From: Mycobacterium heidelbergense
GTDB lineage: Bacteria > Actinomycetota > Actinomycetes > Mycobacteriales > Mycobacteriaceae
Direction of reading: 5' to 3'
Assembly: GCF_010730745.1 (NCBI RefSeq)
Contig: NZ_AP022615.1
Span: 3,353,512 to 3,385,511, forward strand
Length of the DNA stretch: 32,000 nucleotides
Under the pieces are notes generated by a model, which saw only the letters and a program-made list of their open reading frames with translations, did no database searches and was not told the origin of the DNA. Position numbers and translations under genes: made by a program. Shown here in pieces: positions 24,355-30,426 of the stretch. How positions within the stretch are numbered: the stretch's first letter is position 1; each line of letters opens with the position of its first letter.

Positions 24355-24969
24355 TTATGCCCGCCTGGGCCGCGGGCGATCGCCGGCGAAGCCACGCACC
24401 ACGTGCGCGCGCACGAACTCGGCGACGACCTCGGGATCGTCCATGTCCAATGTCGACGACGGCGTGCTGAAGAGCGAAAACAGTATGCGCGCAAACCATT
24501 CGCCGGCGGCCCGCACGTCGAGGTCCTTGCGGACCTCACCGGTGAGCTTGGCGGCGGAGAGGTGGGGCGCGAAGAAGTCGACGCATTCGCGCAGCAGCAC
24601 GCCGGCGTCCTTGGTCAGCAGCAGGCTGATCGCGTCTTCGTCGAAGTATTTCCCGGACGCGATGGCGCGCCGCGCCTGCGTCACGAATACCGCTGCGTGG
24701 CTGAGCTTTTCCTCCAAGGACCCGCCCCGGTCCATCGCTTGGGACATCTCGCGGTAGAACTGCTCGGACGCGTGCTCGGCGCAGGCCTCGAGAACGGCAC
24801 CCTTGTCGCTGAAGTACTCGTAGACCGTGCTCCGGGATACGTTGGCGGTCCTAGCGATATCGACGATCGTCGTCTTCTGCAGCCCTTCTCGGCGGAAGCA
24901 CGCGTACGCGGACTCGACGATCAGCTCGCGGGTATCGGTCGCCTGGGTCAACGCGGAAGCCTGGGTCAT
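24355..24969 (-). CDS. TetR family transcriptional regulator (last gene of the P450-hydratase-aldolase operon)
   Basis: N-terminal HTH is GLQKTTIVDIARTANVSRSTVYEYFSDKGAV. 204 aa. The start ATG 24969 lies 9 nt after the upstream stop (24979-24981). Confidence 0.9.
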   Translation of the reverse strand: MTQASALTQATDTRELIVESAYACFRREGLQKTTIVDIARTANVSRSTVYEYFSDKGAVLEACAEHASEQFYREMSQAMDRGGSLEEKLSHAAVFVTQARRAIASGKYFDEDAISLLLTKDAGVLLRECVDFFAPHLSAAKLTGEVRKDLDVRAAGEWFARILFSLFSTPSSTLDMDDPEVVAEFVRAHVVRGFAGDRPRPRRA

Positions 24970-24978
24970 TCCGCACCC

Positions 24979-26148
24979 TCAGTCGACCGGCGCGAGAATC
25001 AGACCGCTGGTGGGCACGCCGGTCCCCGAGGTGACCAGCACGTGCTCGACGTTGTCGACCTGGTTGTAGGAGGTGCCGCGCACCTGGCGCACGCCCTCGG
25101 TGATGCCGTTCATGCCGTGGATGTAGGCCTCGCCGAGCAGCCCGCCGTTGGTGTTGATCGGCAGCTCGCCGCCGAGTGACAGCCGTTCGATGGTAGCGAA
25201 GTCCTTGGCCTCACCGCGCCCGCAGAAACCGAGCTCCTCGAGCTGGGTGAACACGAACGGCGTGAAATGGTCGTAGATGAAGGCGGTTTGGATGTCCTGC
25301 GGCTTGAGGCCCGAATCGCGCCACAGCCGTTCGGCGACCACCCCCATCTCGGGCAGCCCGGTGATGTCCTCGCGGTAGTAGCTGGTCATCATCTCGCCCT
25401 CGTAGGCCGCGCCCTGGGCGGCCGCGGTGATGATCGCCGGCGGCTGGCGCAGGTCGCGGGCGCGTTCGGCGCTGGTCACCACGAGCGCGACCCCGCCGTC
25501 GCTTTCCTGGCAGCAATCCAGCAGGCGCAGCACGGGTTCGACGATCCAGCGGGAACTCTGGTGGTTCGCCAGCGTGATGGGGCGCTGATAGAACCAGGCG
25601 TCGGGGTTGGTGGCCGCGTGCGCGCGGTCGACGACGGCGATGCGGCCGAAGTCCTCGTTGGTCACCCCGTACGTCGACATGTAGCGCTGGGCGTGCAGCG
25701 CGACCCACGCCGCGGGCGTGAGCAACCCGAAGGGCGCGTAATGCGCCATGAACAGCGGGGTTTCGGCGCTGGTGCGTCCGCTGCCGCCGAAGCGAAACCC
25801 GGACCGCTCGTTGAACGCGCGCCAGCACACCACCACGTCGGCCACGCCGGTCGCGACGGCCATCGCCGCGTGCACCACGGTGCCCGCCGCCGCCCCGCCG
25901 CCGTGGTGCACGCGGGAAAAGAAGTTCAGGTCGCCGATGCCCACGTTGCGGGCGACGTCGATCTCGTCGCTGGAGTCCATGGTGAACGTGACCATGCCGT
26001 CGACGTCGCCGGGCGCCAGGCCGGCGTCGTCGAGCGCGGCACTGACTGCCTCACAGGCCAATTGCAGCTCGCTGCGCCCGGATTCCTTGGAGAACTCGGT
26101 CTGGCCGATGCCCGCGATGGCGCAGCTGCCGGGCAGCGAGCTTCTCAT
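24979..26148 (-). CDS. Thiolase-fold lipid-transfer protein (SCP-x/Ltp2-like, probable retro-aldolase)
   Basis: 389 aa. It has AIAGIGQTEFSKESGRS and INTNGGLLGEAYIHGMNGI, typical of Ltp/SCP-x thiolase-like proteins. The region where thiolases carry the nucleophilic Cys reads HHGGGAAAGT (no Cys), as expected for Ltp2-type aldolases. ATG 26148 overlaps the upstream stop (ATGA). Confidence 0.8.
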   Translation of the reverse strand: MRSSLPGSCAIAGIGQTEFSKESGRSELQLACEAVSAALDDAGLAPGDVDGMVTFTMDSSDEIDVARNVGIGDLNFFSRVHHGGGAAAGTVVHAAMAVATGVADVVVCWRAFNERSGFRFGGSGRTSAETPLFMAHYAPFGLLTPAAWVALHAQRYMSTYGVTNEDFGRIAVVDRAHAATNPDAWFYQRPITLANHQSSRWIVEPVLRLLDCCQESDGGVALVVTSAERARDLRQPPAIITAAAQGAAYEGEMMTSYYREDITGLPEMGVVAERLWRDSGLKPQDIQTAFIYDHFTPFVFTQLEELGFCGRGEAKDFATIERLSLGGELPINTNGGLLGEAYIHGMNGITEGVRQVRGTSYNQVDNVEHVLVTSGTGVPTSGLILAPVD

Positions 26149-26600
26149 GCCCGGTCCCCGTCGAGCAGGCTGAGCACCGCGGTGCCCGAGACGTGATCGC
26201 CGAGGCTGTTGGTGCCCTTGAAGGTGACCTCGACGAAGTTCTCGCCCCCTGAACCCTCGGTTTTGCCGGTCACGCTGCCGGTGAAGCGCAGCGGGTCGTC
26301 GGGAAAGCACGACACGCCAAGGCGAATCGACAGGTTCTTGACCATCGCCTCGGGGCCGGCCCAGTCGGTGAGGAAACGCACGCAATACCCGTTGGTGGTC
26401 AGGATGTTCATGAACAGGTTGGGCGAGCCCTGCTTGTTGGCGTAGTCGCGGTCGTGGTGCACCGGCATGAAGTCGCGCGTGGCGATCGCGCCGGCGACGA
26501 TCATCGTTGTGGTGATCGGGATCTCGAGTGGGCTCGCCTCGTCGCCGACGTTGATGTCGGCCCACTGCAGCGTCGTGGTGCGGCTCTTGACGGTCGTCAT
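26145..26600 (-). CDS. MaoC-like (R)-specific enoyl-CoA hydratase, catalytic subunit (ChsH1-like)
   Basis: 151 aa hot-dog fold. The hydratase motif retains Asp and His: ATRDFMPVHHDRDYA. ATG 26600 overlaps the DUF35 stop (ATGA). Confidence 0.8.
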   Translation of the reverse strand: MTTVKSRTTTLQWADINVGDEASPLEIPITTTMIVAGAIATRDFMPVHHDRDYANKQGSPNLFMNILTTNGYCVRFLTDWAGPEAMVKNLSIRLGVSCFPDDPLRFTGSVTGKTEGSGGENFVEVTFKGTNSLGDHVSGTAVLSLLDGDRA

Positions 26601-28761: not shown

Positions 28762-28782
28762 GGTAAGCCTCCCGGGAGATCC

Positions 28783-28803
28783 GACAGATTGGCCCAATCT
28801 GTC
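28783..28803. promoter_or_regulatory. Perfect 21-bp palindrome GACAGATTGG-C-CCAATCTGTC, candidate TetR operator in the divergent P450/ALDH control region
   Basis: The arms 28783-28792 and 28794-28803 are exact reverse complements around C28793. The centre is 32 bp upstream of the P450 GTG and 164 bp upstream of the ALDH ATG. The size and symmetry are typical of TetR-family operators. A related half-site CCATTGCTGTC lies at 28832-28842, and a weaker inverted repeat GCGTCA-N8-TGACGC lies at 28879-28898. Confidence 0.5.
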
Positions 28804-28956
28804 TAGCGAGAATGTGTCTACTCCGCCGCGGCCATTGCTGTCAATACGGCGTCGGCACAGTGGAATAGCGAGGATTTCGCGTCATTGGTGATTGACGCCG
28901 GAGATCCATGGGTGAACACTGAGTCCCTAGATGACCGACCTTCGGTGAGGAATCAG

Positions 28957-30426
28957 ATGGCCGAGCTAGCACCTCCGGGACCTCTTGTCGACACCTACCA
29001 GCTCTACATCGACGGCAGATGGGTCGAACCGGAGGGCGGCCGCTACGACGACGTCGACCCCGCCACCGAACAGACCATCGCCGCCGCGCCCGACGCGAGC
29101 GTCGCCCAGGTGGGCGAGGCGATCGCGGCCGCGCGCCGGGCCTTCGACGACGGGCCGTGGACTTCGTTGAGCCTCGAAGAGCGAGCGGCTTGCCTCAATC
29201 AGCTCGGCGACGCCCTGGGCAGGCACGCCGACGAGTTCTTCGCGCTGTCGCAGGCGGAGTGGGGCTGTGTGGCCAACGAGCGCGTGATGCAAATCGACGG
29301 CGCCGGATACATGTCCATGCGCGCGGCCCAGCTCGCCACGCAGTTGACCGACGAGCCGGTCACCGGGGTCGGTGCCGGAACGACGTTGCTGCGTCGCGAG
29401 CCGCTCGGCGTCGTGTCGATCCTGACGCCGTGGAACTTCCCGCACTGCCTCAACGTCATGAAGGTGAACAACGCTCTGGCGGCGGGCAATACCGTCGTGC
29501 TCAAGCCCTCGCCGCTGACGCCGCTCGCCGGGCTCGCGCTGGCCCGCGTCATCGACGAGGAGACCGACATCCCGCCCGGCGTGGTCAATGTCGTCACGCC
29601 GTCGGGCATCGAGGGCGCCCGGCTGCTCACCACCGATTCGCGCATCGACATGATCAGCTTCACCGGCAGCTCGGCCGTCGGCTGCGAGGTCATGCGGGCC
29701 GCCGGCGACGCCATGAAGCGCCTCCTGCTGGAGTGCGGCGGCAAGTCGGCGAGCATCGTCCTCGACGACGCGCAGGTGACCGACGAGATGCTGCGGAAGA
29801 TGCTGTTCGATTGCTGCTCGCTGCACGCCGGGCAGGCCTGCATCCTGCACAGCCGGCTGCTGCTTCCCGATTCGTTGCACGACGAGGTCGTCGACCGGCT
29901 CGTCGCGTTGGCCGGCGAGGTCAAGGTCGGCGACCCCAGGGATCCCGCGGCGCAGATGGGGCCGCTGATCAGTGCGGCACAGCTGCGGCGCGTCCAGGCG
30001 CACGTCGACGGGGCGGTCAACGACGGGGCGAAGCTGGCGACCGGCGGCGGCCGCCCGGCCGGCCTGGATGTCGGCTTCTACTTCGAACCGACGATTCTCA
30101 CTGAGGTGCAATCGGATTCGGCGATCGCGCAGGAGGAGGTGTTCGGGCCCGTGCTGTCGGTGCTGCGCTACCGCGACGACGACGATGCCGTCGCGATCGC
30201 GAACAACTCGCGCTACGGGCTGTCCGGCGCGGTGTGGGGCTCCGACGTGGACCGGGCCGTCGGCGTTGCCCGTCGCATCCGCACCGGCCAGGTCGCGGTC
30301 AACGGCATCGGCCCCGGTGACGCCCCGTTCGGTGGCTTCAAGCTGAGTGGGTTCGGCCGTGAGAGCGGCGGAATCGGCGGGCTGCACCAGTACATGGAGG
30401 TGAAGGCCATCGGGGTCCCGGCGTGA
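28957..30426 (+). CDS. NAD(P)-dependent aldehyde dehydrogenase
   Basis: 489 aa. It has LECGGKSA (catalytic Glu region), HAGQACILHSR (catalytic Cys), TPWNFP and EEVFGPVLSV. Start is ATG 28957 with GAGGA at 28947-28951. Confidence 0.9.
   Translation: MAELAPPGPLVDTYQLYIDGRWVEPEGGRYDDVDPATEQTIAAAPDASVAQVGEAIAAARRAFDDGPWTSLSLEERAACLNQLGDALGRHADEFFALSQAEWGCVANERVMQIDGAGYMSMRAAQLATQLTDEPVTGVGAGTTLLRREPLGVVSILTPWNFPHCLNVMKVNNALAAGNTVVLKPSPLTPLAGLALARVIDEETDIPPGVVNVVTPSGIEGARLLTTDSRIDMISFTGSSAVGCEVMRAAGDAMKRLLLECGGKSASIVLDDAQVTDEMLRKMLFDCCSLHAGQACILHSRLLLPDSLHDEVVDRLVALAGEVKVGDPRDPAAQMGPLISAAQLRRVQAHVDGAVNDGAKLATGGGRPAGLDVGFYFEPTILTEVQSDSAIAQEEVFGPVLSVLRYRDDDDAVAIANNSRYGLSGAVWGSDVDRAVGVARRIRTGQVAVNGIGPGDAPFGGFKLSGFGRESGGIGGLHQYMEVKAIGVPA

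Follow-up and report, generated by a model that had tools for sequence, protein, structure and literature searches.

A TetR-associated hydratase-aldolase locus of Mycobacterium heidelbergense, probably reduced from a larger catabolic cluster

The genome of Mycobacterium heidelbergense (RefSeq assembly GCF_010730745.1) carries, within a 32,000-nt stretch of contig NZ_AP022615.1 (positions 3,353,512 to 3,385,511 of the forward strand, here called the window), six minus-strand genes led by a cytochrome P450 and closed by a TetR-family regulator, which face a divergent aldehyde dehydrogenase (ALDH). Between the P450 and the regulator lie two MaoC hydratase subunits (MaoC-N and MaoC), a DUF35 protein and a thiolase-fold protein, Ltp, which resembles the retro-aldolase Ltp2 of the M. 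tuberculosis igr locus. Here we describe this locus, its relatives in other genomes and the function that it may have.

Gene content and protein families of the locus

The features, in window positions, are as follows (ACAD, acyl-CoA dehydrogenase; RBS, ribosome-binding site).

24355..24969, minus strand: TetR-family regulator, last gene of the operon (Pfam TetR_N, E 5e-12)
24979..26148, minus strand: Ltp, predicted Ltp2-type retro-aldolase with a thiolase fold and no nucleophilic Cys (Pfam Thiolase_C_1; NCBIfam PRK07855; PDB 6OK1_A)
26145..26600, minus strand: MaoC, ChsH1-like catalytic hydratase subunit, 151 aa (Pfam MaoC_dehydratas; PDB 4WNB_B)
26597..27013, minus strand: free-standing DUF35 protein, predicted to partner the aldolase, with zinc ribbon and OB fold (Pfam zf-ChsH2 and OB_ChsH2_C; PDB 6OK1_B)
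27013..27561, minus strand: MaoC-N, ChsH2-N-like non-catalytic hydratase subunit, 182 aa (Pfam FAS1_DH_region; PDB 4WNB_A)
27574..28761, minus strand: cytochrome P450 (CYP125/124/142 group) that leads the operon, 395 aa (Pfam p450)
28783..28803: candidate TetR operator, a perfect inverted repeat of 10+1+10 nt lying 21 nt upstream of the P450 start
28957..30426, plus strand: divergent NAD(P)-dependent ALDH, 489 aa (Pfam Aldedh, E 2e-146)
26597..26614, minus strand: deletion scar in which DUF35 closes with the codons T-E-G-S-R-stop, from the tail and RBS of a lost ChsE1-like ACAD
27562..27591, minus strand: deletion scar, altered P450 C-terminal tail (TPAKH and stop) and kept MaoC-N RBS, at the site of the ChsE2-like ACAD in full-type loci

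The coupled arrangement facing the ALDH, the junctions and the catalytic motifs named in the original prediction are all present. The P450 ends at TAG 27576-27574, the MaoC-N stop overlaps the DUF35 start in TGATG (27015-27011), ATGA overlaps join DUF35 to MaoC (26600-26597) and MaoC to Ltp (26148-26145), and the tetR ATG at 24969 follows ltp after a gap of 9 nt. Start codons were reassigned from conservation among orthologues and from upstream in-frame stops in those orthologues, which moved the P450 start to GTG 28761 from TTG 28797 and the ALDH start to ATG 28957 from TTG 28885, and set that of MaoC-N at GTG 27561, a GTG common to the orthologues.

Each hydratase, aldolase and DUF35 subunit matches a solved ChsH1, ChsH2 or Ltp2-DUF35 structure. 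Ltp scores 673 bits against the NCBIfam model PRK07855 "lipid-transfer protein" (cut-off 469) and matches T. curvata Ltp2 (TcLtp2, PDB 6OK1_A) at E 9e-174, with only 2e-38 for CtSal; it shares 70% identity with TcLtp2 and 65% with M. tuberculosis Ltp2, the three proteins being roughly equidistant at 65-70% identity. Aldolases of the Ltp2 type are recognised by a catalytic Tyr294 within a YDHF motif, by Tyr344 (TcLtp2 numbering) and by the lack of the thiolase Cys (PMC12329534). The window protein has YDHF at 292 and GEAYIHG at 339, aligning with positions 293/340 of the TcLtp2 PDB chain, and its residues 83-89 read GGGAAAG, the motif in which the nucleophilic Cys had been said to be missing; this was judged by alignment to GGGAACG of TcLtp2 and GGASS of CtSal (Gly89 region). 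We assign the window aldolase, by its sequence, to the Ltp2 type, since it has YDHF and the second catalytic Tyr and since its predicted DUF35 partner carries a C4 zinc ribbon.

The MaoC subunit matches ChsH1 (PDB 4WNB_B, E 4e-30) and keeps the D-x4-H pair (DFMPVH) within ATRDFMPVHHD, so that the Asp/His motif quoted originally as RDFMPVHH stands in the 151-aa protein. Its putative partner MaoC-N matches the ChsH2 N-domain (PDB 4WNB_A, E 5e-26) and has, in LDDMNPVY, a Tyr in the place of the catalytic His, as does M. tuberculosis ChsH2 (GDRNPIY). The best structural match of the DUF35 protein is the DUF35 domain of T. curvata ChsH2 (PDB 6OK1_B, E 6e-36), and its zinc ribbon is of the C4 type, C-x2-C-x10-C-x2-C (CGGC-x10-CPKC). 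This pattern is also kept in its orthologues, in a fused ChsH2 of a Streptosporangium and in T. curvata; when window positions 26597-27013 were compared with the ChsH2 DUF35 regions of M. tuberculosis (L087:9606-10004) and Mycobacterium sp. E2733 (L088:9588-10004), all four zinc-ligand cysteines were gone from the latter two (RLAD-GSLRHPPVPAVWQDKS).

The closest PDB match of the P450 is a reconstructed CYP125 ancestor (4e-99), followed by CYP124 and CYP142 (about 1e-77), and its heme motif FGCGEHSCVG is intact. Membership of one P450 family requires at least 40% identity; at 34.7% identity to M. tuberculosis Cyp125 (CYP125A1) the window protein falls below this threshold for CYP125. The NCBIfam model nearest to the ALDH is of the Rv0768 type, at 478 bits, which is below that model's cut-off.

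Related loci and deletion of the dehydrogenase genes

The locus shares its protein families with M. tuberculosis igr (cyp125-chsE1-chsE2-chsH2-chsH1-ltp2) and has a similar order. In both, an operon led by a P450 of the same broad group encodes a heteromeric hydratase with a catalytic ChsH1-type and a His-less ChsH2-type subunit, and an Ltp2-type aldolase (YDHF and the second Tyr) with a DUF35 partner; the ACADs of the full-type relatives described below resemble ChsE2 and ChsE1. We compared the window proteins with reference igr loci of M. tuberculosis and Mycobacterium sp. E2733, recovered via ChsH1. The identity of each window protein to its M. tuberculosis counterpart is given below, followed by that between the igr orthologues of M. 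tuberculosis and E2733.

Ltp and Ltp2: 65%; 89%
MaoC and ChsH1: 47%; 88%
DUF35 and the C-terminal part of ChsH2: 43%; 84% (whole ChsH2)
MaoC-N and the N-terminal part of ChsH2: 36%; 84% (whole ChsH2)
P450 and Cyp125: 35%; 77%

Window-to-igr identity is thus 35-65%, against 77-89% for true orthologues. Furthermore, Mycobacterium sp. E2733 holds both a window-type locus (L022) and igr (L088), and because both occur in this one genome we regard igr and the window-type cluster, on sequence grounds, as paralogous systems. The genomic site differs as well: the window locus is surrounded by pruC/pruA/pruB and PE/PPE genes, and fadA5/hsd4B/kstD are not its neighbours. No ACAD was found within 10 kb past the window on the ALDH side, and homologues of ACADs, CoA-transferases and CoA ligases are absent from the entire window. 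These identities, the coexistence in E2733 and the pru neighbours rule out canonical igr identity, in agreement with the original prediction of an igr-like but non-canonical module, and leave practically no chance that the locus is igr with its fadE genes just outside the window. The window locus also differs from igr in having a separate DUF35 protein that keeps the four zinc cysteines lost from M. tuberculosis ChsH2, in possessing its own TetR and divergent ALDH, and in lacking ACADs, whose genes are interleaved with the others in its full-type relatives.

Related loci were collected by a scan for the Ltp protein, with one genome per species, which gave at least 80 loci, and were mapped by tblastn with reference proteins derived from the loci. 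Three architectures occupy one chromosomal site, beside pruB/pruA/pruC. Most loci are of type A (for example in M. scrofulaceum, M. montefiorense, M. asiaticum, M. vulneris and M. paraense), which is also found in a more distant group of 80-82% comprising Mycolicibacterium, Williamsia, M. kyorinense and a second copy in M. colombiense. In type A, one strand carries a double family-III CoA-transferase of roughly 780 aa together with the ALDH, and the opposite strand reads P450-ACAD-MaoC-N-DUF35-ACAD-MaoC-Ltp-TetR, in some loci with a zinc-dependent alcohol dehydrogenase (Zn-ADH) between Ltp and TetR; the first ACAD is 49% identical to FadE29/ChsE2 and the second 33% identical to FadE28/ChsE1. 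Type B, without the CoA-transferase and both ACADs, is that of the window, M. genavense and four metagenome-assembled genomes (MAGs; L008, L024, L026 and L072). Type C shows the losses of type B and has lost the P450 too (M. marinum, M. kansasii, M. colombiense copy L010, L030 and L076). The ALDH accompanies the operon in all three architectures, and tetR is kept at the same position in nearly all related loci. Since the same architecture recurs in many genomes, it does not appear to be a chance arrangement, and since M. marinum and M. kansasii lack the P450 at the orthologous site, this gene seems dispensable to the cluster.

Several loci depart from these patterns. The ALDH of M. kansasii 732 (L005:6941-8397) is split into ORFs of 91 and 376 aa and is intact in another M. 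kansasii assembly (L004), so that the split is probably a strain-level pseudogene or a sequencing error. In M. genavense (L018:4654-7174), a further, incomplete P450 copy (66% identity) lies upstream of an ALDH match that is shortened, the P450 of L034 is broken into two pieces and this locus is without ALDH and CoA-transferase, and L043 lacks most of the P450; by these three loci, the P450 and the ALDH are unstable parts of the cluster.

The separation of MaoC-N from DUF35 is, as far as sequences can tell, a conserved gene boundary. In every locus with an Ltp of at least 74% identity to that of the window, the two are distinct ORFs that overlap, and the split is seen in more than 65 loci, among them Binatia, Microthrixaceae and proteobacterial MAGs; this recurrence rules out a frameshift artefact and upholds the original description of DUF35 as a separate polypeptide. 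The two parts are fused in igr, Streptosporangiales and a few others. In C. testosteroni, the MaoC and DUF35 halves of ChsH2 are active when expressed separately (PMC12502768).

The original prediction had correctly described igr-type FadE28/FadE29 dehydrogenases and a CoA ligase as absent. Deletion scars lie at both former ACAD sites, and we therefore interpret the absence of ACADs as a secondary loss, with the window form arising by deletion, and not as the mark of an intrinsically ACAD-free pathway. In type A loci, DUF35 ends in HQFRPxx and a stop, and the TGA of the second ACAD, which ends in YSEGRP, overlaps the MaoC ATG. The DUF35 of compact loci is extended to HQFRP-x-EGxR and a stop, and the ATGA onto MaoC is unchanged; it thus appears to be fused in frame to the last codons and RBS of the vanished ACAD. 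Instead of the DUF35 fusion, L010 and L030 have a remnant of ~80 nt with the start and end of the ACAD. At the other site, comparison of type A and type B junctions shows that the type B P450 has a changed C-terminal tail which reads into the old ACAD-MaoC-N RBS. Nor did the P450 and ALDH come in place of the dehydrogenases, as had been suggested, for most orthologous loci combine both genes with two ACADs, the CoA-transferase and often the Zn-ADH.

Reduction seems to have happened repeatedly. Junction tails differ from lineage to lineage, and reduced forms are nested among full forms in a bootstrapped neighbour-joining tree of 2895 aligned nucleotides and in a protein tree. In the neighbour-joining tree, L010, which has a distinct junction of its own, is nested in a type A clade with 100% bootstrap, and L024 with L026 and M. 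marinum with M. kansasii form separate pairs (100% each). These data point to at least two independent reductions, and probably to four or more. The opposite course, in which ACADs were inserted into a compact form, is ruled out by the ACAD-derived tails and the remnant in compact loci, and also by outgroups and casLMNOP, which already have the interleaved order. The ancestral cluster would accordingly have comprised CoA-transferase-ALDH on one strand and P450-ChsE2-like ACAD-MaoC-N-DUF35-ChsE1-like ACAD-MaoC-Ltp2-like-(Zn-ADH)-TetR on the other.

The palindrome that had been noted together with the TetR gene lies in the 195-bp divergent intergenic region and is a perfect inverted repeat, GACAGATTGG-g-CCAATCTGTC. 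About 40 of 60 loci have, between their divergent genes, a motif ACA[GC]AT-N7-AT[CG]TGT followed by cGGATC, whose half-sites covary (ACAGAT with ATCTGT, ACACAT with ATGTGT), and only 9 of 2000 random windows gave comparable motif scores. The palindrome is therefore likely to be the TetR operator, at which TetR would repress both divergent transcripts until a pathway intermediate binds it. A sigma-70 promoter scan of positions 24200-30700 found nothing, and an Rfam scan of the window gave no match.

Beyond the locus, the interval from tetR to pruB holds two genes, one for a PE-PGRS protein with a PE-PGRS_C domain (21323-22768, minus) and one for an AAA_14/DUF4143 ATPase (22894-24339, plus). Because tetR lies immediately beside the proline dehydrogenase gene in M. 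marinum and M. kansasii, the two genes at 21323-24339 look like lineage-specific insertions. On the other side, positions 30440-32000, 3' of the ALDH stop, have no counterpart in roughly 90 related loci; this stretch has a lower G+C content (0.61-0.64), occupies the position of the CoA-transferase and enters a 434-aa ORF without a Pfam match that runs past the window end. A sulfur-activation/sulfolipid neighbourhood at 10424-16248, all on the minus strand, precedes pruC/pruA/pruB and contains a Sap-family protein (10424-11065), a CysNC-like GTPase/APS kinase (12642-14711), a CysD-like gene of the PAPS-reductase family (about 14525-15448) and a sulfotransferase (15445-16248). Another stretch of lower G+C (2613-6314; 0.58-0.60 at 3001-5000) lies amid PE/PPE genes and holds two long ORFs (2613-3908, minus; 4977-6314, plus) without Pfam matches.

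Proposed function and rival explanations

We think it rather probable that the locus derives by reduction from a larger catabolic cluster and is under TetR control; its hydratase and aldolase would still be active, and CoA activation and desaturation would be supplied in trans. In the full form, the P450 would hydroxylate a terminal methyl group, ADH and ALDH would oxidise it to the acid, the CoA-transferase would form the thioester, the ChsE-like ACAD pair would introduce the alpha,beta-double bond, the MaoC heteromer would hydrate it, and Ltp2-DUF35 would cleave the resulting tertiary 3-hydroxyacyl-CoA in a retro-aldol step to a ketone and propionyl- (or acetyl-) CoA. The full form would thus take off a C3 branch, as igr and cas do. 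In the window lineage, both ACADs and the CoA-transferase were excised, which left intact the P450, the ALDH, both hydratase subunits, DUF35, the aldolase and TetR; the hydratase-aldolase would convert a bulky 2-branched enoyl-CoA to a carbonyl product and a short acyl-CoA.

Candidate substrates would be steroids whose side chain is short and branched, or other methyl-branched isoprenoids. In Mycolicibacterium elephantis (L091) and M. rhodesiae NBB3 (L092), the b-type full cluster lies within a larger conserved island that includes a second, convergent P450, a 406-aa family-III CoA-transferase/racemase-like gene, SnoaL-like proteins, FadD, a luciferase-like monooxygenase, an amidohydrolase and an extra MaoC protein. 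A non-steroid methyl-branched isoprenoid is a possible substrate, because no steroid ring-degradation genes lie within 10 kb of these two b-type clusters.

The missing steps could be encoded by another, full copy of the cluster, or be provided by the canonical ChsE1-ChsE2 or a FadD. A reduced copy occurs together with a full b-type copy or a b-type ACAD in three genomes, M. colombiense (L010 and L051), the MAG Actino1 (L076 and L054) and Mycobacterium sp. 1165178.9 (L030 and P0272). This pairing, and the activity of the separated ChsH2 halves in C. testosteroni (PMC12502768), make supply in trans plausible. Some observations nevertheless weigh against our proposal. The search with the b-type ACAD revealed no second full copy for M. 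marinum, M. kansasii or M. genavense among its listed matches, all of which have at least 89% identity. Nearby genes include no ferredoxin or reductase partner for the P450, what the P450 and the ALDH do and in which order is deduced solely from their families, and the reduced locus may have taken on a role other than the ancestral one.

A stepwise loss across lineages of the CoA-transferase, the two ACADs, the ADH and then the P450, the split ALDH in one M. kansasii strain and the full second copy in several genomes would all suit a decaying relic whose leftover genes are without function. Selection argues otherwise. For pairs that share the same deletion junctions (window and L008, L024 and L026), dN/dS (Nei-Gojobori, trimmed sequences) is 0.04-0.19 at dS 0.23-0.8 for every retained gene, including 0.08-0.14 for tetR and 0.11-0.17 for the ALDH, and the range is the same in type A pairs (0.02-0.20). 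The retained genes are under purifying selection; moreover, reading frames, stop/start overlaps, catalytic motifs, the P450 heme loop and the operator are preserved in the window, and independent lineages have retained the same core. We consider decay improbable for these reasons. The same purifying selection on reduced forms in several lineages, the intact and translationally coupled genes and the lack of an ACAD or CoA ligase in the window would fit a self-contained, distinct pathway that needs no ACAD and runs from P450 hydroxylation and oxidation to the acid by the ALDH to hydration and retro-aldol cleavage. However, a MaoC hydratase requires an enoyl-CoA, and the locus encodes no enzyme that would form a CoA thioester or introduce a double bond; orthologous operons have two ACADs and a CoA-transferase, the window bears deletion scars, and the M. 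marinum and M. kansasii version lacks the P450. Such a pathway therefore seems unlikely to us.

We give equally little credence to a module of the Sal/Shy/Sad or Mycolicibacterium HBC-operon type, which would release an aldehyde from a secondary 3-hydroxyacyl-CoA for oxidation by the neighbouring ALDH. An ALDH, a free-standing DUF35 and a TetR do lie beside the aldolase, an equal set is found in the HBC operon (atf1, chsH4, MSMEG_6563-type ALDH and kstR3; PMC10398937, PMC11333196), and Pseudomonas and Comamonas use Sal with Sad (PMC12329534). Yet the catalytic set of the window aldolase is Ltp2-like (YDHF and the Tyr344 equivalent), not that of Sal, in which a YDC(Y/F) motif (YDCY) brings a catalytic Cys and Gln stands at the Tyr344 position, and the DUF35 zinc finger is C4, not the Shy-type C3H1 (PMC12329534); the aldolase matches CtSal far less well than TcLtp2 (E-values above), and full clusters place the ALDH in the CoA-transferase operon, which fits a role upstream of the thioester steps. 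We accordingly give less weight to the idea that the ALDH, like Sad, acts on what the aldolase releases. A reading that we hold tentatively, as less likely than reduction with supply in trans, is that the hydratase-DUF35-aldolase-ALDH-TetR core is a functional unit in its own right, stripped independently in several lineages and perhaps re-purposed to cleave an enoyl-CoA or hydroxyacyl-CoA from another pathway, or that the whole family degrades a non-steroid isoprenoid with an isopropyl-type branch. Should the core have been re-purposed, the convergent trimming of the same three genes would reflect selection for new metabolic wiring, not decay.

Relation to known side-chain-cleavage systems

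On the sequence evidence, the full cluster represents a third lineage of C3 (isopropionyl) side-chain removal, beside igr (ChsE1E2/ChsH1H2/Ltp2) and Rhodococcus CasLMNOP. The gene order of the full-type relatives matches that of R. jostii RHA1 casL-casM-casN-casO-casP, which reads ACAD-hydratase-ACAD-hydratase-aldolase (PMC8399759, PMC12502768), a likeness judged by the published order. T. curvata ChsH1-ChsH2-Ltp2 is akin to the window system through TcLtp2 and the C4 zinc finger of its ChsH2 DUF35; in contrast, ChsH2 is fused there and in Streptosporangiales relatives. Both these bile-acid modules, Cas and that of T. curvata, differ further in that CoA is activated by a ligase (CasI) and not by a family-III CoA-transferase, and in that they have no P450 or ALDH.

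The Mycolicibacterium HBC operon (atf1/msSal) resembles the window locus in combining a thiolase-fold aldolase with a free-standing DUF35 protein of 138 aa, an ALDH-family enzyme and a TetR regulator of its own (PMC10398937, PMC11333196). However, its aldolase, like that of the proteobacterial Shy/Sal/Sad systems, is Sal-type (56% identical to Pseudomonas Sal1) and cleaves C22-C23 to an aldehyde, whereas the window aldolase is of the Ltp2 type and comes with its own two-subunit MaoC hydratase. Comamonas testosteroni TA441 ORF40-44 shares the order chsH2-chsE1-chsH1-ltp2, and there the separated MaoC and DUF35 halves of ChsH2 work (PMC12502768); its ChsH2 is naturally fused, and these proteobacterial genes lie inside a steroid mega-cluster. 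We found no description of the window-type cluster in the literature searched, which yielded work on igr, cas, Sal/Shy and HBC only.

Based on our findings, we suggest that mycobacteria widely carry a further side-chain-removal cluster with its own P450, ALDH, CoA-transferase and TetR switch, which bears on what nontuberculous mycobacteria degrade. The reduced loci would constitute a natural experiment, in which the DUF35 adaptor is separate, both dehydrogenases have been cleanly excised and the remainder is under selection, and which bears on the modularity of the hydratase-aldolase-dehydrogenase assemblies of steroid catabolism. The minimal form in M. marinum and M. kansasii may offer a tractable model, and steroid or terpenoid biocatalysis may gain new Ltp2-type aldolases and CYP125-like P450s from the family as a whole.

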